From a virus, in the IMG/VR virus record IMGVR_UViG_3300045988_154248: 64,000 nucleotides of DNA. One strand, written 5' to 3'. Below are positions 7,878-45,875 of the stretch, one piece after another. Below the pieces are notes generated by a model. That model was given only the letters and a program-made list of their open reading frames with translations. It was not told the origin of the DNA and searched no databases. Within the stretch, counting starts at the first letter, position 1, and each line of letters opens with the position of its first letter. Position numbers and translations under genes: made by a program.

Positions 7878-10718
7878 ATGCCAAAACAACATACAATTAA
7901 CCTCGAAGCTGTTATAAAAGCTGCACTGGATAAAAATAGCGAAAAAATAATCGATGATTTTGAGAAGAAAATCACTGAACCAAAAGAGATTAATATCAAA
8001 ACAGATAAAGCATCTAAACAGGTTAAGAAGCTGTCTGATGAGATTGAAAAAGAACAAAAGAAACATACTCAAACGTCTAGAAAAAGAAATAAAACTAAAA
8101 CAGCTACTGAACAAAGTACTCCAAAAAACGCAGATAAGTATGTACAATCAACAATATATGATAAAAAAGGACGTCCATCTACTTCTCATTCGTATACGTA
8201 TGCTGATGGAAAACAACAATCTTATAACAAGAATGGTAAGTTAACATCTGAGAAGCAGACCGTTGTTGATCTTCAAAAAGCATATTCTCAGTTAAATAAA
8301 GACGTAACAGAATATTATTCATTAAAGACAAAAGAAGCAAAAGGCAAAGTAGCCACAGAGGATAAACAGTATGTTAAAGGTCGGATTTCTGATTTAGTTA
8401 ATGAAATGTCTGCAAACCGAAAATATATTGCAGATGTAAAAAAGCAAGGTTTTTACAATGATGAATTGGAGCAAAAAGCTTTTAATCATTTTCGTAGAAA
8501 AGCTAATGGCTACAACACGTATGTCGATGAGAAAAATGCTACAATCAAAGCTTATGGAAATGATGACAATACTGCTATTCGTCAGGGACAGCGTTCGAAA
8601 CAACTAAGTAATTATGCTGGACAATCCACAGATGCAATTGAAAGAGCAAGAACGCTTGATACAACTATAACAGGTTTGGAAAAAGAATTATCAAACCTTG
8701 TTTCTTCTGGCGCATCAATGGATCAAATTAAGTCAAAATTTGATGAATGCACTTCTGCTGGTAAAGAATTTAAAAATGTCATGACCCTAGTCAATAGCAC
8801 TATGGAGAAAACATCTAAAAAAGATACCGTTGTTGGAGATTCAAATGCCGCAAAGCTTCAAAATGCCATTGATAAAAAAGTAGCTCAAGCAAAAACACTT
8901 GTATCAGATAGTTCTATAAAACAATTTGACGCAAAAATTGAAAAGATTAAATCTCAGTACGCTGGACAAGATGGTTCTGCAGACGTTTTATCATCTTTAG
9001 AAAAAACAGTGAATACCATACATGACAAACAGGCTAGTATAAAAGCAGAATTAGCAAAAGGATCTTCTGGAAATTTAACACAAATTGCTTCGGATGCTGA
9101 TATTTTGAATGCAAAGCTTAATGAAGTTGAAACTACCGCGAAAACGCTTGGAACTTCACTTTCAAAAAATCTAGATGGTACCACACTTCAGAGAACTATT
9201 GATAAAATTGATAATCTTGTAAAAAATTCCGACGGTTTTGCAAGCAAATCGCAATTAGAAAAATTAAAAACTCTACGAGATTCTTATACTAATAGTGATT
9301 CTGGAATTACAAAAGCTGTCAACTATGATAATTCTAAAATTATTTCTGGCATCGAGCAGGAAATTAATGCTCGTAAAAAATTAGCAGAAGCTCAGAAAGA
9401 ATTGCAAACTGGTACATATTCTGCGAATGAAGCCAATTATAAAAATGCTCTTTCCAAATATGAAGGGCAAACTTCTGAATCTCTAACTCGTGCAAGAGAA
9501 AGTTTAAAACAATTCAAAGAGATCCGTGAAGACTTTGAAAAGTCTATGAAAGACATTAAGGTTTCTGATCTTAGTGACGAAGAGTTTGAACGTTTAAGTA
9601 AGAATCTTCAGAATATGACTGAAGAGGAAGAAAAATATAAGACAGCGATGAAACAGGTCAAGGCAGAGGAAACTGCTACTCTAGCACCTGGTGTCGCCCT
9701 TCGTGCGTCAAACGAGATGCAGTCTTATATTAACAACAACAGCAAGGCATGGAAGAAATATAAGGCACAACTCGAAGAAGTTCGTGATGCCTATAAAAAT
9801 GTAACAACAGAAGGACAAAAGTTAGAAGTTGACGCTAAAGCTAGGGATTTGAAAGCAAAAATTTCTGCTGATGGATTAACAGGTGCAAGTTTTTGGCAAG
9901 ATACAAAACGTGCTGTTAATCAAATTGCTCAATTCACTGGAATTTACGGCATGTTGCAGAATGTCGTTATGGAAATTCCATCAAAGGTTGTTTCTAATGT
10001 AAAGGAAATTAATGATGCTCAAATTGAATTAGCAAAAGTTGCAAGTGATGCATCGGAGAGTCAATTAAGTCAGTACTGGGATAAGGCTGCTGAAAGTGCC
10101 AAGAAATATGGTGCTACAGTTAGTGATGTAATTAGCAGTACTGCGGATTGGAAACGTCTCGGAGCTTCTCTTGATGACGCAAAAGAATTGTCTGACATGA
10201 CTACTCTTCTGCAACGTGTCGGAGATAACATGACCCAGGAAACATCCTCTTCTGGTCTAATTAGTGCATTGAAAGGTTTTCAACTAAAAGCAGATCAAGC
10301 ACAACATATCGTAGATGTGGCAAATGAGGTAGCCAATACGCAGCCTATTGATACAGCAGGTATTTTTGAAGCAATTGAAAGATCTGCATCATCTCTAAAA
10401 GCCGCTGGCAATACGTATGAACAGGGTGTTGCGCTTGCCAGTGCAGCGAATAGTGTAATTCAAAATCCGGAAAAAATCGGGACAGCACTAAAAACGATCT
10501 CAATGCGCATAAGAAGCGCCGAAACAGATCTTGAAGAAGCCGGTCTTGACACTGAAGGAATGGTAACTTCTACTGCCAAGCTTCGAAAAGAAATGCTTGC
10601 ACTTAGTGGCGTAGATATTCTGAAAGACAAAGATACTTTTAAGTCTACTTATCAAATTCTTGATGAGTTAGCAAATAAATGGTCTGATTTAACAGACATC
10701 CAGCAGGCAGACTACACT
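7878..10718 (+). CDS. tail tape-measure protein, coding segment 1 of 4
   Basis: AAAGGTGGTGA SD then ATG. Coiled-coil N-terminus, then a TP901-type TMP core (ADWKRLGASLDDAKELSDMTTLLQRVGDN...GTALKTISMRIRS...WSDLTDIQQA). The frame runs into a stop 27 nt after the conserved sequence ends. The 3' boundary is approximate. Confidence 0.75.
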
Positions 10719-11109
10719 TGCCTGTATGTACAGAAATGTGCATAAGAGAACACATCTAAAACCAGTAAAACCTAATGCTCTATCACTACAATATGGATGA
10801 AACATGCTGATATGAATGTAACGAAAGTAAAACAACGATAGAGATTCTATATGGTCAAAAGCCTAAGTAGAAATTTTGCTAATTATTTTAAATTAGAAAT
10901 GGTAGCTTGGTCGCAAAGTCCCGAATAGGGATGTGTCAAACGAGTACCCCAACGTCAGGGGGGAGAAATCCTTAATGTAGGGCTTAATCGCTAAATGAAG
11001 TCTGAAATGGTGTGACTGCTATTATTCTTAAGATGAATAATGTGGTTAAAAAGTACTCTGATCTTATATGCGAGTATAAGAATTATTATTGAAAAGAGAA
11101 TTTTATTTT

Positions 11110-11286
11110 ATGAAAAAATTTGATAAAGAATACAGTACTCAATACGTACCTGAGATGAAATATCTTCAATCAAAAGGTATTGAATATTCTTTTGTAAAAG
11201 ATATTCAAGGAGTGACGACATATAAATATACGAAGACACCAGAGTTATTTTTGGCTTTGGTGTCTTTTTATATGGAGAATAAATAA
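11110..11286 (+). CDS. small conserved phage protein, paralog of 3270..3455
   Basis: See 3270..3455. Located inside intervening sequence 1. Confidence 0.5.
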   Translation: MKKFDKEYSTQYVPEMKYLQSKGIEYSFVKDIQGVTTYKYTKTPELFLALVSFYMENK

Positions 11287-11319
11287 AAATACGAAAGGAT
11301 AAATAATAGGTGATAAATA

Positions 11320-12687
11320 ATGGCAAGACAAAAATATACATATGAACAAGTTTACAATGAATTTGACAAAAGAGGTTATGATTTAGTATCAGAAGAATAC
11401 CATAACGTTTCTGAACATCTGGAATATATCTGCAGAAAACATAAAGACAAAGGTATCCAGAAGATAACATTTTCAAAACTTCATTCAGTGAATAGAGGTT
11501 GTTATTATTGTGGTAGAGAACGAACTGAAAATGCGCATGTGAAAGAATTAGATCCTGAATATGACAAACAATTGTGTGAATCGAAAAATTTTACATATAT
11601 TGGATCGAGAAAAGAAAATCATATTTTTGTTATTGATTTTATTTGTAATAATCATAAAGATCTTGGGATTCAGTCTATGCGTCGCAATAATATGAAAAGG
11701 CAAATTAAAGGATGTCAGTATTGTTCAGGGAAAAATTTACCAGAATGGTATATTATGAAAAAGAAAGATGAAGTAAATCCAAATATTATATTAATTGATC
11801 CATATAAAAACATGACTACAAGAATGAAATGTCTTTGCAAGAAACATAATTTTTTGCATAATAAAACCATGCAGGAAATTTTAGGTGGAAAAGGTTGCTA
11901 TTATTGTGGTCTTGAAAAACTAAGTAAACAAATGTTTTTGTCAGATGATCAAGTCAATGAAAATATTCATAAGAAAAATCCACATGTTGATGTTATAAAA
12001 TATAATGGCGCAGATATTATTTCTGAATGGTACTGTAATAAGCACCAAAAATCATTCAGTAAGTGCTATGTTACTTTGCTTTATTGTGATAGTGGATGCG
12101 ATGAATGTTATAAAGAATTAATTAGAGATAGATATGGTTTGGGTCAGTTAGAGTTTAAGAAAAAAATAAAAGAAATTCATCCAACATTACAAGTTATAGG
12201 CAAATATATAAATAATACCACTCCAGTAGATTTATATTGTCAAAAACATGATTGTTATTTTTCAACAGATCCATCTTCTGCATACAAAAGATTATCTTGT
12301 TGTCCTAAATCTAGAGTCACTTATAAAGAAGAATATGTATGTAGTTTGTTAGAAAAATGGGGTTATTCTATTACTAGACAAAAGAAATTTGATGACTGTA
12401 AGGATAAAAACGTTCTTCCGTTTGATTGTTATTTAAATGATTTTAATGTATTGGTGGAATATGATGGAGAAGGGCATTACAAACCTGTAATGTTTGGAGA
12501 AGAATCCTATGAAGAAGCCGTAGAAAAATTTCATTATACGCAAAAACATGATCAAATGAAGAATGAATATTGTGAAGTAAATAATATTCCTCTTATTAGA
12601 ATTCCTTATTATGAGTTCGATGATGTAGAATATTATCTATATGATAATTTATGTAAACTTGGTGTTATAGAAGAAAATTTTCAATAA
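11320..12687 (+). CDS. intron-encoded endonuclease candidate (zinc-ribbon repeats plus Vsr/DUF559-like PD-(D/E)xK domain)
   Basis: Four to five repeats of the pattern C.KH......(G)C..C (CRKHKDKG...GCYYCG; CNNHKDLG...GCQYCSG; CKKHNF...GCYYCG; CNKHQKS...GCDEC; CQKHDC). C-terminal FDCYLNDFNVLVEYDGEGHY...NIPLIRIPY resembles Vsr-like nucleases. Confidence 0.55.
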   Translation: MARQKYTYEQVYNEFDKRGYDLVSEEYHNVSEHLEYICRKHKDKGIQKITFSKLHSVNRGCYYCGRERTENAHVKELDPEYDKQLCESKNFTYIGSRKENHIFVIDFICNNHKDLGIQSMRRNNMKRQIKGCQYCSGKNLPEWYIMKKKDEVNPNIILIDPYKNMTTRMKCLCKKHNFLHNKTMQEILGGKGCYYCGLEKLSKQMFLSDDQVNENIHKKNPHVDVIKYNGADIISEWYCNKHQKSFSKCYVTLLYCDSGCDECYKELIRDRYGLGQLEFKKKIKEIHPTLQVIGKYINNTTPVDLYCQKHDCYFSTDPSSAYKRLSCCPKSRVTYKEEYVCSLLEKWGYSITRQKKFDDCKDKNVLPFDCYLNDFNVLVEYDGEGHYKPVMFGEESYEEAVEKFHYTQKHDQMKNEYCEVNNIPLIRIPYYEFDDVEYYLYDNLCKLGVIEENFQ

Positions 12688-12747
12688 TAATTGGTATAGC
12701 TTTAAGCGAGGGCTATATTAACAAAAGAAATATGAAGTGTAACTGAG

Positions 12748-13083
12748 TTGATCGCCGGTAAAAATCAAGGCAATGTAATGAGCGCCCTTATGAGCCAGTA
12801 CGATATTGCTCGTCAAGCGCTTAATACTGCTATGAATGATTCCGAAGGCTCCGCCGAAAGGGAATTAACTAATTACCAAAAGGGTATCGATTACAGTCTT
12901 GAAAGATTCAAGGCTACATTTCAAGAATTTTCAACTTCTGTTCTATCATCAGACACTTTCAAGGCTGTCATAGATAGCGGAACACAATTCTTAGAAATTC
13001 TTACTAAAATTACTGAAACACTTGGGCCACTTGGCACAGCTTTAACAGCACTTGGTGGTTTCAAATTTATATCAAGCATAGGT
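12748..13083 (+). CDS. tail tape-measure protein, coding segment 2 of 4
   Basis: LIAGKNQGNVMSALMSQYDIARQALNTAMNDSEGSAERELTNYQ is the canonical continuation of the TMP core. No SD or credible start of its own. Confidence 0.7.
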
Positions 13084-13904
13084 TAGCCAAAATCCTGGCT
13101 ATAGTTTATCGTAAACTGGCTTATCAATGCGGAGAATATCATAGCAATGGAATGATATTTCAACGTAGGGAGATTAGTGCTTGTAAAAAATAAATAGAGG
13201 ATTAATTCGTCGAATTCGCTATTCTGCAATAATGCAGTGAAATGGATGAAAATTCCGCGAGAACGCACGAGCCAACCTGACTACGTATAGTAATATGTGA
13301 AACGTTAGCAGCAATTATGGAATTAAAGATAATATCATAATGACGAGCGAAACATATGAAAGTTAGGAGGAGTAGAGAGAACACCCTTCCTCCAGCGTAT
13401 ATAATGCCATAGTTTATATGCGTTGAATGCATGTTCCACGGTACGCGAAAGTTGTGATGCTTTCTCATCACACGCCAGCTTCTATCCTATTTCTGGCGTT
13501 GTTGGAAAATAATAGGAAAATTATATAGATATTTATCGTCAAATTACAATAACAATGGGGGATGTGAAAGTATGGGATCTAAATCTAAATTAGTATTTGA
13601 AACATTAGAATCTGATCCAGATGGTATTATTGATGCAAGCGAGCAAATATTAAATGTTCAAGGTACTCAGTTTTTACCGTTTACCTGAAATGTGCCAGTA
13701 AACATTGCATTGAGGAGAGTATGGAAATACAACTTCCCAGCACTCTCCTCTTCCACTTCTATAACATTTTCAACAAAAATGCCACAAAGAATAACAACGC
13801 TATCGCCCACCAGGGCCATGGCTGCATACTTCTTCTGACTCTACCTTTCCATGACATATCTTTTATTTTTTCCTTTGTCTAAAAATAAGTTTTAATGAAA
13901 GCAG

Positions 13905-14228
13905 GTGATTATTATCAATATTCAGCAAACAGCAAACAAGATAGAAACAAGAATTGTGTCTTCAGATAAATTAAATTCACAAAATATGTCATATGTATAT
14001 ATTGATTCAGATAATCAAATATATGTACGAGAAGGAATACTGCAGAATGATATTGATATATTATCTGCTGTATTAATGCAAAGAAAAGTCGATAGTCGTA
14101 TTAAAAAAACATATTTTGATATTGTAGACTCATTGAAAACGAATCAAGTATCTAAAAATCAATTTGAGTCTCTATATAAGATGGTTCTTGTAAAATATTA
14201 TGGTAAGAATGAAGAAAGTACATTGTAG
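13905..14228 (+). CDS. small protein convergent with protease 1 (MIIINIQQTANK N-terminus)
   Basis: 107-aa ORF behind an AGCAGGTGAT SD. Its first ~12 codons and 5' flank are repeated at 14887-14923. The 3' end overlaps the protease ORF by 31 nt. Confidence 0.4.
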   Translation: MIIINIQQTANKIETRIVSSDKLNSQNMSYVYIDSDNQIYVREGILQNDIDILSAVLMQRKVDSRIKKTYFDIVDSLKTNQVSKNQFESLYKMVLVKYYGKNEESTL

Positions 14229-14866
14229 TTTTCGCATTCTCCAAGACCAACTTCTTTTTCTTTATATGAATAGCTTGATTGTTCAATCCCTACTAAATAA
14301 TATTGGCTATCACGATTAATAAATATCGGTGATCCGCTTGATCCACTAAAGCATTCCATATCCACAAGGAAACGTTCCAATCCATTAAATTTTGATTTTA
14401 GAGGTGTCGCAATAACGCCACTTCGAATAAGTGGAGTGATAAAATTATCAGACTGAAATGATAACGGATATCCAATCATTAACGCATATTCAATTGAAGA
14501 TATTGGAAAATCTTCCGTTATAATATCTTCTTTTGTAATCCAAGATATTTTTAGCTTTCCTACATATTCTGGTGAATCGATTAGATCATTTATTCCAATT
14601 ACTGCAACGTCATATTGTGGATGTAAATATGGTTGGATACGTATTTCATTGTTTAGAAGATTCACTTGATCGTTTTGCTCAATAGGGACAGAAAACAAAG
14701 CGTTTTTCATATTCTCAAATATATGCCTATTCGAGACTAATGCATAATTTTCTCGATTATTTGCATGGTATTTATAGAAAAATCCTGTACCAATTTTACA
14801 TTCATCATTTTCTTTTAATACAGTAATTTTTGTTACAGTATGAATCAAATTCTCTTTTGTAAGCAT
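14198..14866 (-). CDS. trypsin-like (S1/chymotrypsin-fold) serine protease 1
   Basis: AAGGAGAAG SD. His in LVSNRHIF, Asp in YDVAVIGI, Ser in FSGSSGSPIF (GxSGxP). Confidence 0.7.
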   Translation of the reverse strand: MLTKENLIHTVTKITVLKENDECKIGTGFFYKYHANNRENYALVSNRHIFENMKNALFSVPIEQNDQVNLLNNEIRIQPYLHPQYDVAVIGINDLIDSPEYVGKLKISWITKEDIITEDFPISSIEYALMIGYPLSFQSDNFITPLIRSGVIATPLKSKFNGLERFLVDMECFSGSSGSPIFINRDSQYYLVGIEQSSYSYKEKEVGLGECENYNVLSSFLP

Positions 14867-14894
14867 ATTTTACTTCTCCTTAATTAGAAAGCAG

Positions 14895-15236
14895 GTGATT
14901 ATTATCAATCAAACAGCAAACAAAACAGATCATCAGGAATCTATACAAACAATACACACAATAGAATTAACCACTAATGAGTATAATACAATCAAATATT
15001 TTTTTGAAAATATGGAGTCTTTATATAACTATGGACTGATTGATAAGGAAATTGTCCCATATAAAATTTTCTCCAATGCAAAAAATCATTTTATGAAAAA
15101 GCCAAAAATTACAATTACTAATTTAAAAATGACAAAAGCTTCAGATACTATTACTCATCTAGTTTGTGGTGATCAAAGTGTTAAATCTGTTTATCAAATA
15201 GCTACTTCTCCGTCACAAGAGGATATTGTTCTCTAA
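14895..15236 (+). CDS. small protein convergent with protease 2 (MIIINQTANK N-terminus)
   Basis: 113-aa ORF behind the same AGCAGGTGAT SD repeat. Overlaps the protease 2 ORF by 35 nt. Confidence 0.4.
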   Translation: MIIINQTANKTDHQESIQTIHTIELTTNEYNTIKYFFENMESLYNYGLIDKEIVPYKIFSNAKNHFMKKPKITITNLKMTKASDTITHLVCGDQSVKSVYQIATSPSQEDIVL

Positions 15237-15936
15237 TAAAATCAAGTATATAAAACGCATATACTTCCTGAGAAAGACCAAGACTTTCTTCATACTTCTT
15301 TTCAAATTCGTCTGTAGTAATTTTAAGAGAACGTATTTTAGCAGAATGATGTATGCCAAGTAGTTTGTATTTTTCATTAACTTTGATATAAACTGGGCAT
15401 CCACTTAAACCTTCTTTGGTATTGGCATAAGTGAAGAATCCGTTTTGAAAGTTGAACTGAATAGATGATGCAGTATTTCCTTTAATAATAAAAGGATACG
15501 CTAAGATTGTGTACCCTAATGCTGCTTGATAGCCAACGAGATAGACATCTTCCAAATCATTAAAACTTGATCTGTCATCATTTAAAATAATGTCTGATTC
15601 TTCTATAAAATGAAAAATTATATTGTATTTATTCAAGGCCTTGATTATTGTATTTGTTATATCGACATAGGCGATATCAAGAGAAGGATGTTTTATAGGA
15701 GAGACAGTTATATTAAAAGTTATACCTGACATTTCTTCGTTTTCGTCTATAGTGGATATAACAAAAGATATATTCATAATATTTTTGTCAAAACAATGAC
15801 CGCAAGAACAAAGGAAATATGATTCTCCTTGAGATGTTGCTAATTTTATGATAAAACCAGTAAAAGAGTGTCTTGGTTCTTCAGTATTATCAGCAATAAA
15901 TACTGTTGTATATTTCAAGTCATTTACACTAATCAT
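15202..15936 (-). CDS. trypsin-like (S1/chymotrypsin-fold) serine protease 2
   Basis: GAGAGGAAAA SD. His in SCGHCF, Asp in LDIAYVDI, Ser in EGLSGCPVY. Confidence 0.65.
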   Translation of the reverse strand: MISVNDLKYTTVFIADNTEEPRHSFTGFIIKLATSQGESYFLCSCGHCFDKNIMNISFVISTIDENEEMSGITFNITVSPIKHPSLDIAYVDITNTIIKALNKYNIIFHFIEESDIILNDDRSSFNDLEDVYLVGYQAALGYTILAYPFIIKGNTASSIQFNFQNGFFTYANTKEGLSGCPVYIKVNEKYKLLGIHHSAKIRSLKITTDEFEKKYEESLGLSQEVYAFYILDFIREQYPLVTEK

Positions 15937-15969
15937 ATCAATTTTCCTCTCTTATGTTTTATGGTTATC

Positions 15970-16533
15970 TTAAAAATCATACCCACAATTCTTACAGTGA
16001 AATTGTTTGCCGATTTTCTCTGATGCAATGCCAAACATATTTGTAGACAGCATACGTTTGAATATACCGATTTTCTCGATATTTGTAGATTGACACACTG
16101 GACAGTGAGGTTGGTTGGCAGATGTTGGATTTTGATAGTTGTTCTTTTCTCTATATTGTTTTAACCGCTCTTCTTCTTCATGACGTCTTTTGTTATATGC
16201 ATTCTCATCAAATTGATTTTCCACATTAAGATCTTTTAGGTCATTAAGAATGCTTTCTTTGTCACACCCGTGATGATTTAACAAATCTACCATTTCATAC
16301 TTAGTTTGTATAAATGGAACGCGACAATATTTACAGTTAACTCTTCTACAATGACCAGCATAATTAATTTCATGAACCCCACATCTCGGACAGATAAAAC
16401 CTCTAGTAAAATCATTAATATTATTTTCTTCTAGATATTTTTTGATTGGTCGTCCACAATGAGGACAAGTTTCAGCATAGATGCTAACTTCTCTATCACA
16501 ATCTGGGCAATATATCAAATTTTGAAATCCCAT
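15970..16533 (-). CDS. multi-zinc-ribbon protein
   Basis: GGAGGA SD then ATG 16533. Four CxxC pairs (CPDC..CPHC, CPRC..CKYC, CPVC..CKNC) separated by an acidic/basic linker. Confidence 0.55.
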   Translation of the reverse strand: MGFQNLIYCPDCDREVSIYAETCPHCGRPIKKYLEENNINDFTRGFICPRCGVHEINYAGHCRRVNCKYCRVPFIQTKYEMVDLLNHHGCDKESILNDLKDLNVENQFDENAYNKRRHEEEERLKQYREKNNYQNPTSANQPHCPVCQSTNIEKIGIFKRMLSTNMFGIASEKIGKQFHCKNCGYDF

Positions 16534-16620
16534 ATTACATCCTCCAATGCACATTAAATTAATTACATTATATCATAATTATTATATAAATCCAACATTA
16601 TACAATAATTTTATTCGCAG

Positions 16621-19600
16621 TTAAAAAATTTAGGTGATTTATTTGGTAGTTTTGGAGAATTAAACTTACTGAGAAATAAATATGGAAAAAACGCAACATT
16701 TGATACATTAAGCAGTACACTACAACAGTCTTTTAACGAGTCTTTTAAAGTTGGGAAAAATGGAATTAGTGAATTTTCCACAGAGCAAATTAAAACTAAA
16801 GCATCTGTAATGGGATTAAATGATGCGTTGACAAAACAAGCATTATCTCTTGCGAATGACGCTGGTTTATATCAAAAAGCTGCGGCAGGTAATCTTACAT
16901 TTAGTAAGGCTATAGAATTAAATATAAATAATGCAAGCGATTTAGTTGATGCCTTGATGAGTAGTAATTCTGAAGTCTTAAAAAAATATAAAGATAACGA
17001 TATTGCTGATATGATAGCTAATTCAGGTGAAAAAGGCAGCGCGGCATATAATGAGTTTGTTAAAGATCTCATCGATAAAAATCAAGATTTAGGGGACTCA
17101 ATCGTTGAATTAGCACCCAAAGTAGAAACTACAAAATCCGCATTTTCTGGTTTATCAAACTATTTTAAAGGACTTTTTGCTACATTTACAAATCCGATTT
17201 TCCTTTTAACGACAGCCGTTACCGTAGGGGTTGCGGCATGGCAAGGCTATAACCAATCTGTCCAGGAATCCATCCAGCACACGAAAGACTCAATAGCAGA
17301 AATAGAGGAACGTAATAAGTCTATTGACGACAATATCAGTAAAGCACAGGAACTAAGGGATTCCCTTGATTCCGGTACTCTTACAGAGCAAGAAGCTTAT
17401 AACACGAAGAGTCAATTGCTTGATATCCAAAGTCAATTATCTGATTCTTATGGAGAACAGGCGGATGGAATTGATCTGGTAAATGGTAAGCTGGATGAGC
17501 AGATCGAGAAGATGCAGCAGCTCAAAGTTGAAAATGCGAAAAGCTGGCTGAATGATTCGGATAATGAGAAGAATTACGAAAAAGCTAAGAAGAAGATGAC
17601 CAAAGATGATTATGAGTCATTCTTTGGAAATACACCTACTTTATCTTTACTTGGTAATGCACCAGAAAAAGCCGACTATACAAATTCAGACGTATATAAA
17701 GATGCACTGAAACGTTATCAAAATAGCAAATCCCAGATCGAAGAAATCCAGAAAGCAGCAGAAAAAGCCGGACTAAAACAGTATACAAGTACAAGCACAG
17801 GTCAGTTCCAGCTTGGTTTTGAAAATGAAACAGTAACAGGAGCAGATGAAAAATTAAACTCCTTCCTCGCTACTGTTAAAGAACTGAAACGGCAGTTTGA
17901 TGATGAGGGTAAAAATACTGATTACTTTGATAATATCATCAGTTCCGCCGAAGATGCCGAATCTTCTTATAAGGATATTTTAGACAAGCATCAAGAAGTA
18001 TATCAAGAGTATCTGAAAAACTCCATGCTTGCAGAGGGTTATGGTAATAATAAGCCAGCCACAGTATACCAGCAATATGCGGATGCTGTAGATAAATATA
18101 ATGAAGCCCTGCAAAGTGGAGATACATCTAAGGTCGAAGCAGCGAAAACTGCATTAGATGGCGTAAAAGATTCCGTAGATAATATTGTCAGTAGAGATTC
18201 CGGAAAAAAATACAAGGAACTGTTTGATGAGATTGCAGATGGTATTGACACAGCATCCGAAAAAACTTATGAGTTCAAAGAACGCTTATCCGGTAAAGGT
18301 ACAGATAAATTAAACAATACTGTGCTTTCTAAGCTCAAAGAGTTGAAGAATTACACAGATATTGACCTCAAGAGTATCAATCTTGATACAAGTGATGTTG
18401 TTGCTGGTAAAGATGCTCTACGCATGGCAGTAAACGAAGCAATGGATCTTGACATTGTTTCCGATGATTCTGCTGAAAGTGTGGCAAAAGTTGTTGATCT
18501 CTTAACGGATATGGGTATGACGGCAACCGTATCCATGAATCAAGTGGATGATTCCTTCTCAGAAGTCAATACTACCATTCAGCAAGCACAAGCAAATCTG
18601 GAAACGCTCAAGACGATTATGTCTGAATCTGTTTCGGGAGCAGGTATTTCTGCCGATAATGTGAAAGCATTTAAAGAAATGTTCGGAGATGATGCTGCGC
18701 GTGCTTTGGAGAAAACCGCAGACGGTTACCATATCAATCGTGAAGAGCTTGCAAAATTACAGGCGCAACAGTCAGAAATGAACAAAGCGGATTATCTTTC
18801 CGGTTTGGCAGATCAGCAGGAAGCTCTGAGACAAATCGAGGAGCAGATCGCCGATGCAATGGTAAAAGGTCAAGATGTCAGCGGCTTACAGGCACAGCGC
18901 GAAGGTATTTTGGATAATATTTCCTCTCTGGAGGATCTAGCATATCAGTATCAAACTGCTACTTCTGCTTATCAACAATGGCAGGATGCTATGTCCGGTG
19001 GTGAAGAAGGTAATATGTATGATTCCATCCAGGGTAACATGGAATCCATCAAAGATCTCTACGACAAAGGACTTGTGGGAGAAAACAAATTCCGAGAGTT
19101 TGTTGACCTTATGTCCAATAAGGATCTGACCAATGCCAGTGTGGATGAAATCGTTGCGGCTTATGAAGAATCCTATCCGAAGATGGAACGTTATTTTACA
19201 GAAGGACAGGAAGGATGTCAAGCATTCTTACAAGATATATCCAACCTTAATTCTGAATGGGCGCACATGAATGAAGATGGTTCATGGGAGATTAATTTCG
19301 GAGTCGGAAACGATCAAGAGATTGCGGATGCATTAGGAATTGATGTGGAAGCTGTACAATCAGTACTAAGAAAACTGCATGATTTTGGCTTTGACATCGA
19401 CCTCGATCAGCCGGTTAAATCTTTGGAACAACTAAAGACAGAAGCTCAATCAGCCAAAGAAGCTCTTGATGGAATGGGTGAAACTTCTCTTGATAGCATC
19501 AATTTGGACACAGATTCATTCAGTGAAATCACAGATGATATTGACAAGGTTAAGGAATATATTCAGCAGATCAATGATGCTGATTTGGAGCCAGAAGTTC

Positions 19601-22492
19601 GGACAGAGAGACTGGAGCAAGCCAATAATATTCTTGATTATCTGGTACAGAAACAGCAAGAGGCTGGACATACAGATATTATCATTGATGCGGATGCAAG
19701 TTCTGTCGATCAAAAGATCTCTGATCTGAAGAGTCAACTGGAGCAATTCAGAAACGAAGACGGTACGATTCCTGTTAATGCCGATACACAAGATGCTGTC
19801 AACAGTCTGCAATCTTTGTATGCTACGAAGCAAAATCTTGAAAATACACCAGCTATTCTACAGGTTGATACTTCGCAGGTTGACGGAGAACTGGGCAATG
19901 CGATCGGAAAATTACAGGAATATCAGAATGCTGTAGAGATTCTGAATGCACAGAACACGATGAAAACACAGGGCATCGACATTGATACCACAGATGCACA
20001 GCAGAAAGTACAACAGTTGGCAGGACAGCTACAGAATCTTGATGCTGATACGACAGCAAAGTTAGGTCTTGACGATACTGATTTTCAGTCGAAACTTTCT
20101 AATATTGCTACTCATCCGATTGATGTAGGAATAGGGGTAAATCTTGATCCGAATGCTCTTGCCGACGTCTCTGCAAAGATTTCTGGAATTACGCCAGAAT
20201 TACTTGTAAAAGCTGGTGTAAACGAAGAGGCGATTGTAAATTATACGCCGAAAGATAAGGACGCTACGGTCAAATACAAAGTTGACCATAGTGCGATTGA
20301 CAGTTATGATCCGGAAGACAAAAATGCTACGGTTACTTACGGTGTGGTTGTTTCTGGACTTGAAAATCTACCAGGTAATAAAACAAGAAGTCTGACTTAC
20401 AATATTAAGACTAATGGTACGGCTCCAAAAGTAAATGGTACGGCACATGCTATAGGAACAGCTCATGCGGCAGGTACTGCAAGCCGTAATTGGGGGCTTG
20501 CTCACAATGAACCACATGCGCTTGTAAATGAATTGAAACCAGAAGCAATCGTTCGGGATGGTAAGGCGTTTATCTTGAATGGCGGAGATCCTACTTTTGC
20601 AAATCTGAAGAAAGATGATGTTGTATTCAACGGTGATCAGACGGAGCAGTTGCTTGAACATGGTTATGTTACCGGTTCTCATGCACAACTTGCAGGTGGT
20701 GGTTATTCTTTAGGTAGTGCGTTCTCTGGAGGATCGGGAAGATTTAATGTTGGAAGTTCTGGAACAAAAGCTGATTCTTCCACATGGGAAGACGAAAAGA
20801 AACAGAATAATACCAGCCCTAACTCATCTTCTGGTAGCAGTAGTCGTAAAAACAGTGGATCATCTTCTGGTGGTTCAACTCGATCACCTTCCGGTGGAAG
20901 TTCTGGTGGCTCTTCATCCTCTTCTGATGCAAAGTCAACAACAGAAGAAGTAGTTGATTTTATCAAAATTATGCTCTCCCGTCTGTCCCGTATGACAGAG
21001 CTTGCAACTAATGCAATCGAACGTGCAGTAGGTCTTGCAAATAAACAAGCAGCCGCAGCAGATGCAATCGGTAAAGCAACGAATGAAATGGTTCATAACC
21101 AACGTGCAGCAGATGCTTATTTGGCAAAAGCTAATAGCATTAGTTTGTCTGATGCTTATAAGAACCAGATCATGAATGGTAGTATTAATATAGATACCAT
21201 CACAGATGAAGATCTGAAAAAGAAAATTAGTGACTTCCAAAGCTATTATGAATCTTACTTATCTGCAAGAGACAATGCGTTAAAGCTCGAAGATAAAATT
21301 ACCGAACTCGCTGAAAAACGTCTGGAAATCATTGAAAAAGAATATGATGCGATCGTAGACATCAACGATGCGATAAAAACCGTAGCCGATTCCAAAATTT
21401 CTCTCAACGATGCGCTGGGCGTGGCGATTGACAATCCAGACAATTATGCTAATCTGAATAATTCAATCAAAGCACAGGAAGATACTTATAATCAGCTGAC
21501 GAAAAAGCTTTCCGATTATCAGAAAGAGATGGAGTCTCAACTTTCCAGCGGCTTGATGCAAAAGGGTTCTGATGCCTATAATTCTGCGCTAAAAAATATT
21601 CAAGATTTTACAGCTAAGATTTATGATGCTTCTACCAGCCTTCTTGAACTACGGGATAAATTGGATCAGATTAAAATTGATACTATCCAGAATGTAATTG
21701 ACGGAATCAAACGTAATTCGGATATTACGGAGAAATATATTTCTTACCTGCAATCTCAGAATCGTGATGTGCCAGAGAATCTATACACTGACCGTATAGA
21801 TAATAATAACGCTCAGGTACAGCAGAATCTAAAGCAGATGGAAATATACCGGAAGAAACAGGCGGTTCTTGATGTCAATTCTAAATCGTATCAAGATTAT
21901 GCAGAAAAGATTCAAACGCTAAAAGAAAATACTTTGGAACTGATTACGGACAATGAATCTCTTCAAGATAGTATCTATGAGCTACGATTTAAGCCACTTG
22001 ACGATGCTATCCAGAAGTACAGTGACCTTGAAGATGAGCTGAAAAGTTTCCGTGACCTTCTGAATGATGATGCATTCCTTGATAAGCAAGGACGTATCAC
22101 GGAAGATGGATTGGCACAGATTGCTCTCTTACAACAGAGTATTGGTACGGCAAAACAAAAAATTGCAGATTATACCACGGGCCTGCAAAAACTAAAAGAG
22201 TCTTATGACAATGGGGTTATTTCCTTAACGGAATATAATGACAAGTCAAAAGATTACCGTGAAGGTATTCAAGGTTCGATTGCAGATGTGAAATCATATC
22301 AGGACAGTCTGGTTGATCTGTATAAGAATGCTATGAGTACAGAGGTTGATTATCTAACCTCTATTGTAACGAAGAGACAAGAGGCGCTTCAAGCAAAAGC
22401 TGACTATTATTCCTATGATAAATCAATATCCAAAAAGAGCAATGATATTAATGTTATTAAAGCACAAATCATGGCTTTAGAAGGGGTGAAAT
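16621..22492 (+). CDS. tail tape-measure protein, coding segment 3 of 4
   Basis: The frame is open from 16609, upstream of the listed Met at 16810, and has no SD. Long coiled-coil with one TM-like segment (IFLLTTAVTVGVAAW), a Gly/Ser-rich stretch (20790-20930) and a conserved LVNELKPEAIVRDGKAFILNGGD block. The 3' boundary is approximate. Confidence 0.7.
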
Positions 22493-23075
22493 ATTTGCTC
22501 CTATAAAATCTATTTAATTGCGGGAAGTCCCCATAAGGTTTAATTGGCTACAACGTAACCAGAAACGGTAGGCGTGAATGCGGTAGAGTTTTAAACTTAC
22601 AGTCCATTATTAGATAGAAACCATAAAAATAATTAAACTAGGGATAACCGAGTGTGCAAGTCACTCAGACGCAGCGAACTTCCTAAGTCAGAAATGATAT
22701 GGAAGACGTTCAGAGACTAACCCATATTGGGTGGCGCAATGCCTTAATGGAAGACTGCAAGCGATTGGCGGTCGAAAAAATATAGACTATTTGAATATTA
22801 AGTGATATTATAATTTTGAGGTGTGTTCTTTCCTATAATTAGTGATGAACAGATAGAACACAGTGTAGATACAACCAAAGAGACTCTCGAACACACATAT
22901 GAGAGAAGTAAGTAGAAGAAAAGACAACGAAATAGAACAATAAAGAAGATTGTGCAAGTTTGTAGAAGTTATACGAACCATCGTTCGCATGTTTGTGAAT
23001 TTTGCGAATAGATTTTTCTCTTGGGATTGCATATAATAAAGTCAAGAAAACCGTAAAGTTTTCTTATAATTAGTG

Positions 23076-23174
23076 GTTACGAAGCCATAAAATCGTATTA
23101 ATAGATGTTACGAAGCATGTAAAAAATCGTATTAATAGATGTTACGAAGCATGTAAAAAATCGTATTAATAGCG
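23076..23174 (+). ncRNA. ToxI/antiQ-like antitoxin RNA: three tandem 31/34/34-nt repeats
   Basis: GTTACGAAGC(C/ATG)...AAAATCGTATTAATAGAT repeated head-to-tail at 23076-23106, 23107-23140 and 23141-23174, immediately upstream of the ToxN-like gene. Confidence 0.7.
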
Positions 23175-23197
23175 GAGCTGGTTACAGCTCCTTTATT
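23174..23197 (+). terminator. terminator between the antitoxin repeats and the toxin gene
   Basis: GGAGCTG-GTTA-CAGCTCC hairpin then TTTATT. This is the position of the attenuating terminator in toxIN/abiQ loci. Confidence 0.6.
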
Positions 23198-23213
23198 ACT
23201 ATTAGGAGAAAAT

Positions 23214-23774
23214 ATGAAGTGGATTAATGTAGACGAAAAGTATACAGATTATCTTAGAAGTCACGAAGGAAGAATTCCTATGACCAATTATGGCACAGAT
23301 AAATACAAGCCATTTTTCGGTGTGCTGTTTGAAACAAATGGTTTGTATTATATTACACAGGTATCACATCCACGGGAAAAACATAAACGCTTGACACAAC
23401 AAAAAGATTTTTACAAAATATTTGATCCAGATAATACAACAAGATTAATAGCGGTTGTTAATCTTAATTACATGTTCCCAATTCCAAAAGAATGTACAAG
23501 TGCATTTGTTAAAAAGAATATAGGAACATATCGTACATTTAAATCAGAGAAAGCAAAAAGTCAATATATTAATTTGCTTGATAAAGAATTAAAAGTAATC
23601 AATAAAATGGATTTAGGAACAAAAGCATTGCAGTTGTATCATTTAAAATATACAGATCCTAACAGTACCGTTTCAAAAAGATGTATTGATTTTAAGGATA
23701 TGGAAAAATGGGCAAAGTTATATATTGAAACGTTAAATAATACAGAAACTACAGAACAACCCAAGGAGCAGTAA
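23214..23774 (+). CDS. toxN: ToxN/AbiQ-family type III toxin (endoribonuclease)
   Basis: MKWINVDEKYTDYLRSHEGRIP...KPFFGVLFETNGLYYITQVSHPREKH...IAVVNLNYMFPIP aligns with ToxN as I recall it: MKFYTISSKYIEYLKEFDDKVP...KAFIGIVLEIQGHKYLAPLTSPKKWH...LGLINLKFMIPI. AGGAGAA SD. Confidence 0.8.
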   Translation: MKWINVDEKYTDYLRSHEGRIPMTNYGTDKYKPFFGVLFETNGLYYITQVSHPREKHKRLTQQKDFYKIFDPDNTTRLIAVVNLNYMFPIPKECTSAFVKKNIGTYRTFKSEKAKSQYINLLDKELKVINKMDLGTKALQLYHLKYTDPNSTVSKRCIDFKDMEKWAKLYIETLNNTETTEQPKEQ

Positions 23775-23928
23775 ATCTACTGCTCTTTTCTTATACCTCA
23801 AATCTTAATTACAATCCCTCAAATAAAATTCAAATAGAAGATATAGTCCCATGCCATACGAAAGTATGGGGAGCAGTTATGCTCTTGTCCACGTAGCGAG
23901 TGGATGAAAAGAAAATGAAATAACCTCG

Positions 23929-25409
23929 ATGCTCAATCTCAAGTTAAGAAATTGAAGCAACAGCTTTCAGAAGCAGAGCAAGATTTAGCCGATACTAAGC
24001 GTGACCATGCAAATGATATGCAGTCTCAAGGTTACGATAAGCTCAGTGAAGATCTGAAAACTTCTCTTGATGATACCGAGTACGAAATTAGTCATAATGC
24101 TGACAAACAGCTTGAGATCATCAATTCTATGCTTGACAAAGCCGTGTCCTCTTATCAAGAAGCATATGGCAAAATCAACTCTATCATCAAAAATACTGGC
24201 TGGGTAGGTAGTACGGATTTTAACAATACCCAGTCTGATCTAAGCACAGAGACAGGTGTTAAGAATCAAAATTCCAACGCATCACAGTCTCAGTCCAGTG
24301 CAAATAAAAATCCATCCAGTACCGCATCTGGTACAAAAACTGATCCAATCAACAGTAATTCAAAAGCAAACAGTGATCTTGCGGATCAATTAGTTAAACC
24401 GGAAGATACAACGAATCGTAAGGTTGCGGAACTAAAGGTGTCTCCTACTTCTACTACACTGAAAGAGGGTAAATCCACAAGTATTACTGCTACAATCAGA
24501 CCGAACGATGCAGCTAATAAGACTCTTGCTTGGAAATCAAGTAATGAATCCATTGCTACTGTATCCAATGGTACGGTAAAAGCAAAGAAAGCAGGTTCCT
24601 GCACGATCACTGCTACTACTACTGACGGCAGCGGTTTATCTGCGAAAGTATCTGTTAAAGTCAATGCGAAACCAAAACCACCAAAGCCACAGCCGAAACC
24701 ACAACCAGCAAAAACTGGTGGAGATGGAATTCCTCGTGTTGGCGATGTCGTAACGTTCACAGGATCTTATTATAATGATTCCTGGGGTATGGCTCCAAAA
24801 GGTAGTAGATTTTCCGGTCAGCCTGGTGCTGTTGTTATTGACTCTTACACGGCTAGGGAATATGGCGGAAATGGACGTACTACTGGTGATTTTAAGATCC
24901 ATATCAAGAGTGCGCATGATCCTAATTATAGTGATCTTGGATGGGTGCGTCTTAGCCAGATTAGTGGTTATGAAAAGGGTACGGATCGTATTCATGGTGA
25001 TCAGCTTGTATGGACAAATGAAAATAAAGACACCAAACATCATGGCGTTTCAGAATTAATCTATCGCAAGAAAGATGGTGCTGTCCTTACACCTGTTCAA
25101 GATGGAGATTCTATTCTACCAGCAGATTTTGTAAGTAATTTGATTAAATTAAGTGCAATTGATCCTAAAGAATTCGGTATGAATGTAAGTACTACGCCAA
25201 ATCTGGTACAGACGAACATTCCTCAAAATATCAGCAATGTTGGAAATGTAACGGTAAAAAATCATTATGATTCATTACTCACAGTTGAAGGTAATGTTGA
25301 TAGGGATGCTCTGCCTGGATTACAGGAAATTCTTGAAAAGTCTTATCAGTATACAAGTAAACAGATCGTGAAAGATGCAAGAAAAGTTGGTATTAGACCA
25401 TCAAGATGA
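23929..25409 (+). CDS. tail tape-measure protein, coding segment 4 of 4
   Basis: The frame is open from 23919 with no SD. A coiled coil continues, then a Big_2-like Ig domain (VSPTSTTLKEGKSTSITATIRPNDAANKTLAWKSSNESIATV), a PKP linker and a C-terminal block typical of TMP ends. The 5' boundary is approximate. Confidence 0.7.
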
Positions 25410-44354: not shown

Positions 44355-44392
44355 GGGGAATATCAATTAATTTTGGTATTCCCCATTTTTTT
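44355..44392 (+). terminator. terminator hairpin (possibly bidirectional)
   Basis: GGGGAATA ... TATTCCCC stem followed by ATTTTTTT. It abuts the tniQ stop codon. Confidence 0.55.
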
Positions 44393-45875
44393 ACGCTTTT
44401 TTATTATTTTTCTGTATTTTTAGATACGTTTCAGGATATCTGTATTGTAGTATATTCATGGCTTTTATCATATTTTTTTCTATTACGTGTACCATACCCT
44501 TTAATTCGCTATATGAAATATAATCGCTGTCAATTTGATCGACAATATATTTTATTTTATCGACCCAATAATCCTCTATTGGTTTTTCTTTTGTTTTAAT
44601 ATACTTATAGCATTGTGGCATATAATAAAAATCATTTCTTCTGATGTCTTGACAAATTTGTTGCATGAAAGCATTAAATCCTCCTACAGTTAATCTTCTA
44701 ACTTTGTCAGAATTCTTAAAATATAAGTCAATATAATATTCAATTTTAGGATAATACTTTTTATCTAATTCAGAATACCTCTTTCCTTTAGGCGGTATAT
44801 TCCTACTGCTACTATGTGCATAATTTTGGCTTATTATTTTTTGTTTTTCAACTTCATATTGACCGTTAATTATTTTACTTACATTACAAGGTAAAATATG
44901 ATATTGTTTTGCAAGCTTGTTTATGCCGTTATCTTTTGTATACTCTGATCGAATTCTTTCGACTAATTCCGAATCAATTTGTTTCGCCGTTTTGCATACA
45001 AAAATATCAGATATTTGTATATCTAAAAATAATAATATATGAATTGTTCTAAGTGGATTCGCTTTATTTGAAAATATATCTTGCATTTTCTTAATCTGAG
45101 AATTCTTTTCTATACTATTCTCTAACAAGTATTGTTCAAAATCATTAATAAATGCTGACTTATGTTGTAGCCACGAAAGTTGATTTATATACCGTTTTTG
45201 AATTAATTTTTTATAGAATACATCAAACATCGTAATACCGTTTTTAAGACTCTGTTTTCTTACTACTAATTGATATAGGTATTTTGCGGTATTTATTTCA
45301 CCGATGGTTCCCATATTATACGAATAATCATCATCAATACAATTTTCAGCTGCATGAAAATTAATTATTCTTGAATTATTAACATTAATTGACGAATCTT
45401 TAAGTTTACATCCGTGAATTACACAAACATTAATTTCTGGAATTTGATGAAAAGCATTCCAATATGTTTCGTGATATTGCTCTCTATTTTCTTTTGCACA
45501 TAATGGACAATATTTTAGAAATATTTTTTGATGTTTATGTTTTGGTCTTAATGGAAGATATTCTGTAAAACTCTTGTCATTTGATATGAACTTTCTCAAC
45601 GCATCTTCTTTGTTTGATTTGTTTAAAAATAAAGACCAATAGAAAAACATAGTGTGATTATAATATAAATCATTAACTATATAATTTTTCGACATAAAGG
45701 AATACAATGTGTCACTCGGTTCATTCACATAAAATATTTCGATGTATTCATGCGGTTGTTTAAACACGATTTCTTTAAAAGATTGATTATTCTGTACATT
45801 TATATCTTGTTTCAATCTTGAATACACGCTATAGAATAATTCATGTTCATATATTTTTGGAAAGTAATTTATCAT
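44391..45875 (-). CDS. tniQ: TniQ/TnsD-family target selector
   Basis: N-terminal FPKIYEHELFYSVYSRL (TniQ signature). Zn motif CPLCAKEN...CVIHGC. C-terminal HTH-like GINKLAKQYHILPCNVSKII. Start overlaps the tnsC stop. Confidence 0.75.
   Translation of the reverse strand: MINYFPKIYEHELFYSVYSRLKQDINVQNNQSFKEIVFKQPHEYIEIFYVNEPSDTLYSFMSKNYIVNDLYYNHTMFFYWSLFLNKSNKEDALRKFISNDKSFTEYLPLRPKHKHQKIFLKYCPLCAKENREQYHETYWNAFHQIPEINVCVIHGCKLKDSSINVNNSRIINFHAAENCIDDDYSYNMGTIGEINTAKYLYQLVVRKQSLKNGITMFDVFYKKLIQKRYINQLSWLQHKSAFINDFEQYLLENSIEKNSQIKKMQDIFSNKANPLRTIHILLFLDIQISDIFVCKTAKQIDSELVERIRSEYTKDNGINKLAKQYHILPCNVSKIINGQYEVEKQKIISQNYAHSSSRNIPPKGKRYSELDKKYYPKIEYYIDLYFKNSDKVRRLTVGGFNAFMQQICQDIRRNDFYYMPQCYKYIKTKEKPIEDYWVDKIKYIVDQIDSDYISYSELKGMVHVIEKNMIKAMNILQYRYPETYLKIQKNNKKA

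Follow-up and report, generated by a model that had tools for sequence, protein, structure and literature searches.

A likely group I-type intron in the tape measure protein gene of a gut phage harbours a two-stranded, exchangeable cassette array with two predicted serine proteases

Introduction

Why does the tape measure protein (TMP) gene of a phage contain 3.5 kb of DNA whose genes are mostly read in the opposite direction? The question is posed by IMG/VR record IMGVR_UViG_3300045988_154248, a stretch of viral DNA of 64,000 nucleotides (the window), in which the TMP gene is interrupted at positions 13084–16620. A first-pass annotation had placed the interruption at exactly these positions and had suggested a mobile accessory island with two proteases. 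The analysis described here agrees on the location and reads the stretch as intron 2 of the TMP gene (13084–16620, plus strand), an intervening sequence most likely of the self-splicing group I type. A core of approximately 440 nt lies at its 5′ end, and approximately 3.1 kb 3′ of this core forms a cargo compartment. The intron holds six genes, four of which lie on the opposite strand under a promoter of their own. The best explanation of the whole is an intron-sheltered, hypervariable accessory or conflict island, whose proteases would be made early and whose small partners would be made late; taken in its entirety, we give this explanation slightly better than an even chance.

Phage introns are usually treated as selfish elements carrying at most a homing endonuclease, whereas the cargo found here is multi-gene, promoter-bearing and two-stranded, and differs between otherwise near-identical phages. 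A literature search for comparable intron cargo found nothing, and to our knowledge no phage intron described so far has a cargo of this kind. The novelty of the locus therefore lies in a group I-type intron serving, in this reading, as a safe harbour for a two-stranded, promoter-bearing and exchangeable cassette array. The comparison set consists of 12 related loci obtained through protein look-ups and 24 obtained from IMG/VR (numbered with the prefix L), and gene maps cover the 25 related loci with at least one placeable TMP junction, plus the window.

Boundaries of the probable intron

Exon 2 of the TMP gene (12740–13083, plus strand) ends in GGT, with U13083 as its last base, and its reading frame ends exactly at the junction, where the frame meets TAG at 13084–13086. 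The frame resumes at 16621, the first base of exon 3 (16621–22506, plus strand), directly after an intron end of GCAG (G16620). Removal of the intervening sequence keeps the frame and joins SSIG to LKNLG, and the predicted spliced sequence runs from ...AGCATAGGT in exon 2 directly into TTAAAAAAT in exon 3. In all close relatives, the junctions are identical: exon 2 ends in ...AGCATAGGT, the intron begins with TAGCC and ends with TTGCAG, and exon 3 begins with TT(A/T)AAA, while 2.4–8.3 kb of variable cargo lies between. The boundary rule of a 5′ exon ending in U and an intron ending in omega-G holds in the window and in all relatives. Furthermore, exon 3 is coding from its first base, in that protein versions with 47% identity differ by synonymous changes at the junction, and its beginning contains neither a Shine–Dalgarno (SD) sequence nor a start codon for 63 codons. 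In more distant TMPs, namely those of Tsamsa-like Bacillus phages and the continuous open reading frames (ORFs) of L032 and L036, the site is crossed without interruption.

The absence of a recognizable homing endonuclease, already remarked upon in the first-pass annotation, is borne out by domain and family scans, in which none of the LAGLIDADG, GIY-YIG, HNH, His-Cys and PD-(D/E)xK types was found in 13084–16620. An exact-pattern scan of IMG/VR with a 26-mer from the core returned the same insertion site only, with neither a second site nor a cargo-free copy. Two other explanations of the interruption were dropped. A group II intron lacks its signature here, as the GUGYG...AY ends are absent and no domain V match was obtained. 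Recoding, bypassing or an alternative genetic code fares no better: reading TAG as sense leads to TGA 21 codons further on, and both exons are long ORFs in the standard code. Because of the precise junctions, the U...G rule, the conserved core, the group I-like neighbouring introns and an architecture like that of IStrons, the stretch 13084–16620 is, judged from its sequence, an intron and most likely of group I type. Splicing would remove the whole cargo from the TMP mRNA, and foreign genes would thus be tolerated without harm to an essential gene.

The same gene contains further insertions. Intron 1, at about 10714–12739, carries a 455-residue HNH/homing endonuclease ORF on the plus strand (11320–12687; phrog_559, E 3e-51), and we infer its splice points to be U10713 and G12739, which gives ...DIQQADLTELIAGKNQ after joining. 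In its 5′ part, intron 1 shares 76% identity with a group I-like intron of L007 that has 543 nt and no ORF; this L007 intron matches Intron_gpI at a sub-threshold level (23.5 bits, E 8.7e-4) and has a clear J8/7-P7′ element. In exon 2, at the position equivalent to 12886 of the window, insertions of 543 nt without an ORF (L005, L007) and of about 2 kb (L008) are present, and L002 has an insertion of about 1.8 kb near the equivalent of 12760. The neighbouring insertions in the TMP gene also obey the U...G rule and are group I-like. This short conserved segment of the TMP gene is a hotspot with at least four intron sites.

The conserved 5′ RNA

The first approximately 440 nt of intron 2 (13084–13520, plus strand) represent a conserved structured RNA and the candidate ribozyme core. 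In 18 distinct copies this segment is 90–99% identical, while the cargo downstream differs. Two hairpins show a compensatory change from G-C to A-U: the first one (13086/13099, in L012) and the long one (A3 columns 223/281, in L031). These changes affect 2 of 133 predicted pairs among copies of this high identity, and most other changes keep the pairing as wobbles. Candidate P3 (ACGUAG/CUACGU), P4, P7 (CCUGA/UUAGG), P8 and P9 elements can tentatively be placed by eye in group I order. In addition, the motif AACG(A)UAGRGAGAU is common to intron 2 and the neighbouring introns of the TMP gene.

At the far end of the intron, UCCAACA (16591–16597, plus strand), as read from the sequence, is a candidate partner of UGUUGGA (13500–13506). 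The resulting 7-bp helix could, tentatively, confine the cargo to a terminal loop. Although every variant 3′ tail retains UCCAACA, the motif shares bases with the -35 hexamer of the minus-strand promoter described below, which makes its conservation ambiguous.

Directly after the core, L003/L004/L006, L012, L019 and L025 carry a sense-strand ORF of 332–338 residues (phrog_30306, no Pfam match). It is absent from the window, where the equivalent position is 13517, and in the relatives it lies between the core and a 77-residue ORF. This ORF occupies the spot expected for a homing endonuclease and is the sole endonuclease candidate, in relatives only. The window retains a 38-codon remnant of the 77-residue sense-strand ORF (13572–13688, plus strand), the N-terminus of which is homologous to the intact 77-residue ORF of L002/L003.

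The minus-strand unit

The four minus-strand genes follow in the order zinc-ribbon protein, protease P2, protease P1 and a 32-residue peptide. The claim that the cargo is transcribed against the TMP gene is strengthened by a predicted promoter of its own, which had escaped the first-pass annotation together with the gene of the 32-residue membrane peptide at 13759–13857. This sigma-A-type promoter (16595–16567, minus strand; TTGGAT, a spacer of 17 nt and TATAAT, with a TG extended -10) is located within the last 55 nt of intron 2 and has been retained where the 3′ tails have diverged in other respects. As it also stands ahead of a zinc-ribbon gene outside any intron in L056/L057, its conservation reflects a promoter rather than intron structure.

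The zinc-ribbon protein is encoded by the first gene of the unit (15970–16533, minus strand, the ORF being open to 16554). The ORF at 15970–16554 has 194 residues, and the four CxxC pairs attributed to it have to be revised to six CxxC motifs, corresponding to three zinc ribbons. Translation probably starts at ATG 16533, preceded by the SD sequence GGAGGA at 16545–16540, to give a protein of 187 residues. Pfam zinc-ribbon matches are sub-threshold only, and a sequence search of the PDB with the protein gave nothing meaningful. A member of this family adjoins exon 3 in every array, and the homologues are confined to the phage group, one record being named Fusicatenibacter.

The last gene of the unit (13759–13857, minus strand) encodes a basic and hydrophobic membrane peptide of 32 residues (MSWKGRVRRSMQPWPWWAIALLFFVAFLLKML) with a pI of 12. 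Nearly every array retains the gene, and most of the differences between copies are synonymous. Its SD sequence is perfect in most loci (AAGGAGGAT) and degenerate in the window, and the copy in L008 is a pseudogene. The peptide resembles small membrane toxins or holin-like peptides. Just downstream of this gene, a perfect 9-bp inverted repeat (GAGGAGAGT ... ACTCTCCTC, 13712–13750) is followed by a T-run on neither strand; transcripts of the antisense unit could be processed or terminated there.

The proteases P1 and P2

P1 (14198–14866, minus strand) has 222 residues and is assigned, by profile, alignment and model, as a PDZ-less, HtrA-like serine protease of the PDC-S45 family. P2 (15202–15936, minus strand), with 244 residues, is its divergent paralogue according to profile and alignment. 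Two S1-fold proteases with intact triads and a distant mutual relationship had been proposed from the letters, and the comparison bears this out: P1 and P2 are 27% identical (BLASTP E 5e-16), and their triads align. In an alignment of 60 sequences including P2, His48, Asp86 and Ser177 (P1 numbering) are invariant; the triad motifs of P2 are GHCF, LDIAY and GLSGCP, and the GSSGSP motif is present in the family alignment. The PADLOC profile PDC-S45 matches P1 with E 3.2e-40 and P2 with E 7.6e-19, while weaker PADLOC matches are to LmuA, RT-protease and Avs2, in each case to the protease domain. Similarly, phrog_7688 matches P1 (E 1e-32) and P2 (E 7e-11). P1 also reaches Pfam Trypsin_2 (29.6 bits against a cut-off of 27.6); P2 has no match to Trypsin_2 and is linked through P1, PDC-S45 and phrog_7688.

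The AlphaFold2 model of P1 has a mean predicted local distance difference test score (pLDDT) of 94.7 and matches 508 PDB structures at E ≤ 0.001. The closest are the protease domains of DegP, DegS and DegQ, with TM-scores of 0.60–0.67 at an identity of 16–19%, whereas a sequence search of the PDB with P1 detected no relative. P1 consists of the protease domain only, with neither a PDZ domain nor a signal peptide, and no sensor domain was found in the proteases. Taken together, the profiles and the P1 model support the assignment of P1 and P2 as compact, cytoplasmic PA-clan serine proteases, their activity being predicted. Compared with the bacterial family members (approximately 276–293 residues), the phage proteases lack both a second-barrel insertion and the C-terminal helix. 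The idea that the adjacent small ORF supplies a missing C-terminal domain of PDC-S45 was rejected, as the ORF lies on the opposite strand and the alignment identifies the phage proteases simply as compact versions.

An ordinary prohead or scaffold protease had been named as the alternative that would undo the accessory interpretation. No maturation-protease family matches P1 or P2, and the genes are variably present. An intact serine protease is absent from the arrays of the close relatives L015, L017, L020 and L029, so the proteases are dispensable accessory genes. The two bacterial homologues inspected are single genes in accessory positions of prophages, at a tail–lysis junction in Macrococcus and at a prophage end in Acinetobacter. 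The sole paper that names PDC-S45 describes it as a hypothetical phage defence candidate found in a prophage and reports no test of it.

The probable small sense-strand genes S1 and S2

Downstream of each protease gene, an ORF of 107 or 113 codons had been noticed on the TMP strand at 13905–14228 and 14895–15236. Both are present as described and overlap the 3′ ends of the protease genes by 31 nt (14198–14228) and 35 nt (15202–15236), respectively. S1 (13914–14228, plus strand), convergent with P1, comprises 104 residues from AUC, or 107 from GTG 13905; S2 (14904–15236, plus strand), convergent with P2, comprises 110 residues from AUC, or 113 from GTG 14895. Each is headed by the same translation-initiation box, GAAAGCAGGTGATTATTATCAAT, in which an SD sequence precedes the AUC. 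Box 1 (13897–13919, plus strand) and Box 2 (14887–14909, plus strand) form an exact 23-nt repeat, and a third family of small ORFs, S3, uses the same box. The box matches the full anti-SD sequence in 12 of 14 positions, and the AUC is located 8 nt after the GCAGG core, the counterpart of the consensus GGAGG. AUU replaces AUC in some relatives, and in the L008 module beside the P1 orthologue an ATG occupies the AUC position and opens a called gene. From this arrangement, the starts of S1 and S2 are most likely AUC 13914 and AUC 14904, not the GTG codons.

The open frames of S1 and S2 span 109 and 122 codons in DNA of 25–27% G+C. When each AT-rich spacer was shuffled 5000 times with dinucleotide composition retained, an equally long frame appeared 0 times for S1 and 2 times for S2. 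S1 is intact in 15 loci, P1 being adjacent in all of them, and has a protein identity of 90.6% compared with 84.3% for P1 in the same genomes. One variant of S1 has an in-frame deletion of 6 nt, no homologue of S1 below 86% identity was found, and its AlphaFold2 model is poor (pLDDT 54.7). S2 is 79% identical to its homologue in L008; the frame is kept through 58 differences in 330 nt and an indel of 3 codons, with a ratio of nonsynonymous to synonymous differences (pN/pS) of 0.36. Among 1.8 billion representatives, S2 has only one relative cluster. On this evidence, low-level translation of S1 and S2 from a start codon other than AUG is probable.

No convincing plus-strand promoter was found ahead of S1, and S2 has none of its own, since Box 2 begins at a distance of only 21 nt from the end of the P1 start codon (14866). 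With no promoter of their own evident, the mRNA source of S1 and S2 would be the TMP pre-mRNA or the excised intron, from which intron-encoded endonucleases, too, are normally expressed. A weak promoter-like site on the plus strand lies at 16548–16576.

Variability of the cassette array

The suggestion that the stretch is a mobile accessory island is upheld by the gene maps, in which the locus is hypervariable and, in relatives, holds cassettes of toxin–antitoxin (TA) or defence type. The ends of the array are constant, with the promoter and zinc-ribbon gene on the side of exon 3 and the membrane-peptide gene on that of the core, and the middle is variable. Each middle module combines a large gene on the minus strand with a small, convergent one on the plus strand: P1 with S1, P2 with S2, a 252-residue HELCH protein with a 114-residue ORF, a 250-residue HELIH protein with S3, and zinc-ribbon paralogues with a 66-residue ORF. 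The arrays also hold zinc-ribbon membrane proteins and a DUF5067 lipoprotein. In the same slot, relatives carry a protein with a SocA/Panacea antitoxin domain and its 110-residue partner, or a toxin-of-TA-system protein (phrog_3066) with an HTH/M78 protein (PD-Lambda-2_B, E 7.5e-31). The junctions between modules fall at the initiation box and at a 61-nt repeat at the 3′ end of the zinc-ribbon genes, a pattern that fits cassette exchange by homologous recombination. No linkage exists between cargo type and TMP exon-3 type, and protease alleles are shared between loci whose versions of exon 3 have 30%, 47% and 94–98% identity.

The layout of a large minus-strand gene and a small convergent gene recurs in four unrelated families of large genes, which speaks for a pairing of the two. 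S1 likewise accompanies P1 in 15/15 loci, and S2 accompanies P2 in six of the seven loci that carry an S2-family ORF, the seventh being L008. Beside the two bacterial protease homologues inspected, convergent small ORFs were not seen. Profile scans revealed no homology of S1, S2, P1 or P2 to TA families.

A related array exists outside introns. In L056/L057, the promoter, the zinc-ribbon gene, the convergent 66-residue ORF and the DUF5067 array lie downstream of TnsB/TniB/TniQ genes. Since one array is carried by an intron and another is associated with TnsB/TniB/TniQ genes, such cassette arrays reside on two kinds of mobile element. The window itself encodes, on the minus strand after the endolysin gene (44391–48807), a TnsB-like protein of 577 residues, a TniB/MuB-like protein of 401 residues and a protein of 494 residues; L056/L057 are 91% identical over TnsB and its upstream region.

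Proposed mechanism and alternatives

In the proposed mechanism, the promoter of the minus-strand unit would be used by host RNA polymerase, either early or constitutively, to supply the zinc-ribbon protein, both proteases and the membrane peptide. Translation of S1 and S2 would depend entirely on the TMP pre-mRNA or the excised intron and would hence be late; we infer this difference in timing from the strand on which each gene set lies. Late sense transcription would thus supply S1 and S2 as proposed inhibitors or immunity factors of P1 and P2. Simultaneously, it would oppose the protease mRNAs through convergent transcription and through antisense duplexes of 31–35 nt or longer. The mature TMP mRNA would be insulated from the antisense traffic, because the whole region would be spliced out. 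The proteases themselves are proposed to be conflict effectors directed against the host or competing phages. A design in which sense genes depend on a late pre-mRNA and antisense genes on their own promoter is directly checkable. A further-reaching version regards the intron as a safe harbour combined with a strand-encoded timer: the phage would turn its serine or metalloproteases off as the virion proteins, including the TMP, are made, and the proteases would attack either proteins of competing phages, whether injected or freshly synthesized (a TMP-linked exclusion at the protein level), or host defences, with a cassette pool shared across self-neutralising mobile elements. We regard this version as possible, though doubtful.

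Several observations weigh against the intron-sheltered island with protease–partner pairs. At the RNA level, no Rfam intron family matches intron 2 at gathering or E-value thresholds, in sub-ranges or in five related loci, and RF00028 gives no match even at E ≤ 10 on 861 nt. A canonical P1 helix cannot be drawn; the best pairing, AUAGGU/GGCUAU, has a G-G mismatch and competes with the first hairpin, which is itself supported by covariation. At the level of the small genes, AUC is a very unusual start, and S1 and S2 are orphans, for which neither a family, a PDB match nor a distant homologue was found, nor any homologue outside the phage lineage. The pN/pS of S1 is based on too few differences (17 in 291 nt) to discriminate a frame, and that of S2, 0.36 in frame, is 0.43–0.45 in two other frames, so that the coding frame is not clearly singled out. 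As regards the pairing, the S2 homologue of L008 has no protease beside it, S3 is found beside an HExxH protein in some loci and beside a 51-residue protease remnant in others, and the small ORFs beside P1 orthologues of 44–50% identity show no similarity to S1. Finally, PDC-S45 is only a candidate defence family, and the match to its profile spans only positions 17–215 of 293.

The first group of these points could be taken to mean that no intron exists, and that the entry of a mobile island has left the TMP gene in pieces, which are translated separately or connected by trans-splicing or other recoding, with another role for the 5′ 440 nt. A 3′ splice site 3.1 kb away under opposing transcription and the promoter-like site at 16548–16576 would suit such a split as well as the missing Rfam match and P1 do. 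However, an exon 3 that lacks an SD sequence and a start codon over 63 codons and is nevertheless coding from base one, precise U...G junctions, sister TMP insertions that are group I-like and include a homing endonuclease, and the ability of IStrons to splice out kilobases of 3′ cargo (PMC4227781) make a split gene improbable. The second group of points leads to an alternative with the same anatomy, in which the spacers of approximately 330 nt act as RNA, as antisense or regulatory elements or as sites of RNase III action or interference, and the frames and the box are by-products, for example of a ribosome-binding or recombination boundary sequence. The orphan status of S1 and S2, their AUC or AUU starts, the indecisive pN/pS and the poor S1 model are all consistent with it; in addition, the box coincides with cassette junctions, and the DNA of the S1 region is more conserved than that of P1, as expected for a function at the nucleotide level. 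Against these stand the rarity of such long frames among the shuffled spacers, the 12/14 anti-SD match at ideal spacing, the true ATG in a paralogue, indels that stay in frame and at least five unrelated families of small ORFs at the same position, and we consider the RNA alternative unlikely, if not by a wide distance.

The pairing, in turn, would dissolve if the proteases were early offensive or counter-defence enzymes that degrade host proteins and the small ORFs were unrelated late accessory genes sharing the safe harbour. A promoter of the host-polymerase type, proteases free of signal peptides and sensor domains, the lytic lifestyle suggested below and an S2 homologue without a protease would be expected in such a case, but the family occurs at prophage moron sites and as domains of defence effectors, the co-resident cassettes are of TA or defence type, and the strict convergent overlap of large and small genes would be left unexplained; this alternative appears rather unlikely to us. 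A morphogenetic role of the proteases, in prohead, scaffold or TMP maturation, is brought to mind by their location within the gene of a structural protein, and proteolytic processing is common among TMPs. The matches, however, are to Trypsin_2, PDC-S45 and HtrA-like structures, the genes are antisense to the late operon with their own promoter, and four close relatives do without them, so a morphogenetic role is hardly credible.

Comparison with known systems

IStrons, which combine a group I intron with an IS200/IS605 or IS607 element in Clostridia and Bacillus (PMC4227781), are similar to intron 2 in having the core at the 5′ end, followed by kilobases of unrelated genes up to a distal 3′ splice site, and in that splicing leaves, or in intron 2 would leave, the interrupted gene unharmed; both are found in Firmicutes. 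An atypical geometry of P1 and the 5′ splice site is documented for group B IStrons (PMC4227781). Unlike IStrons, intron 2 contains neither TnpA nor TnpB, with no transposase domain in any ORF, and carries an antisense operon and sense ORFs instead; its mobility is presumably by homing or recombination. The endonuclease introns of phages (T4 td, nrdB and sunY, SPO1, and intron 1 of the present gene) share with it the interruption of an essential phage gene, U...G ends, a peripheral ORF and the clustering of introns in one conserved segment, but intron 2 carries six genes in place of an endonuclease. In fungal mitochondria, group I introns shelter rps3 and other non-endonuclease genes that are not needed for intron mobility. 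There, however, a single host gene on the sense strand resides in an organelle, whereas the present array is antisense, multi-gene and variable in a phage.

The trypsin-like domain is shared with PDC-S45, Lamassu (LmuA-protease), RT-protease (class XI) and Avs2. Compared with PDC-S45-type proteins of about 276–293 residues, P1 and P2 are shorter, at 222 and 244 residues, have no fused sensor, belong to a phage genome of lytic type and are accompanied by convergent small ORFs. With HtrA proteases (DegS, DegP, DegQ), P1 shares, according to its model, the chymotrypsin fold and the H/D/S triad, but not the PDZ domain or the signal peptide. Similar to morons, hypervariable islands and TA cassettes (PanA/PanT, PD-Lambda-2), the array has its own promoter within a late operon, variable presence and exchange at short boundaries. 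In contrast to these, the island is situated inside an intron, not between genes, and the genes of the window match no known TA family.

If this reading holds, introns would join moron sites, P2/P4-type hotspots and transposons as stores of conflict genes in phages, at no cost to the interrupted gene, as with IStrons. The locus also provides an entry point to a stand-alone PDC-S45-type family that is common in prophages, as it contains two paralogues, each with a candidate partner.

The phage lineage and further observations

The window belongs to a human-gut phage of roughly 200 kb. Contigs of its relatives reach 196–207 kb, the S1 and P1 protein clusters each occur on more than 100 contigs, and the samples of the lineage are human gut metagenomes, in which it is abundant. 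When 185,579 species genomes were scanned for a host or prophage, the only matches were TMPs of 35% identity in metagenome-assembled genomes of Clostridiales and Oscillospiraceae, and no prophage copy was found. The host of the phage, as far as these sequences indicate, is probably a member of the Clostridia, and the missing prophage copy together with contigs of 196–207 kb suggests a lytic lifestyle. A DNA search of the region against 50,697 phage records in near and distant modes gave no match.

Around the 3′ end of the TMP gene, the exon-3 ORF ends at 22506, and the next plus-strand ORFs start at 23214 and 23952. The C-terminal TMP ORFs of relatives comprise 1965–2456 residues, and a further interruption may therefore lie at 22506–23952. 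Between the TMP gene and a gene with a PBECR4 domain, L003 contains a drum RNA on the TMP strand (RF02958, 71 bits, E 3.6e-11, at L003:1384–1490), which has no match in the window.

In the more distant locus L001 (MT835469.1), with a TMP of 50% identity, an interruption of 3.5 kb (12456–15929) occurs at a comparable position and carries different cargo on both strands: a 114-residue ORF and a 248-residue DUF3800 protein, followed on the opposite strand by ORFs of 301 and 113 residues. This locus suggests that intron cargo is a wider habit of the phage group. Elsewhere on the minus strand of the window, an anaerobic ribonucleotide reductase, NrdD (53311–55473; phrog_487, E 1e-225), and an NAD-dependent DNA ligase (57876–59909) are encoded, and the two genes are in keeping with a large phage whose gut host is anaerobic.

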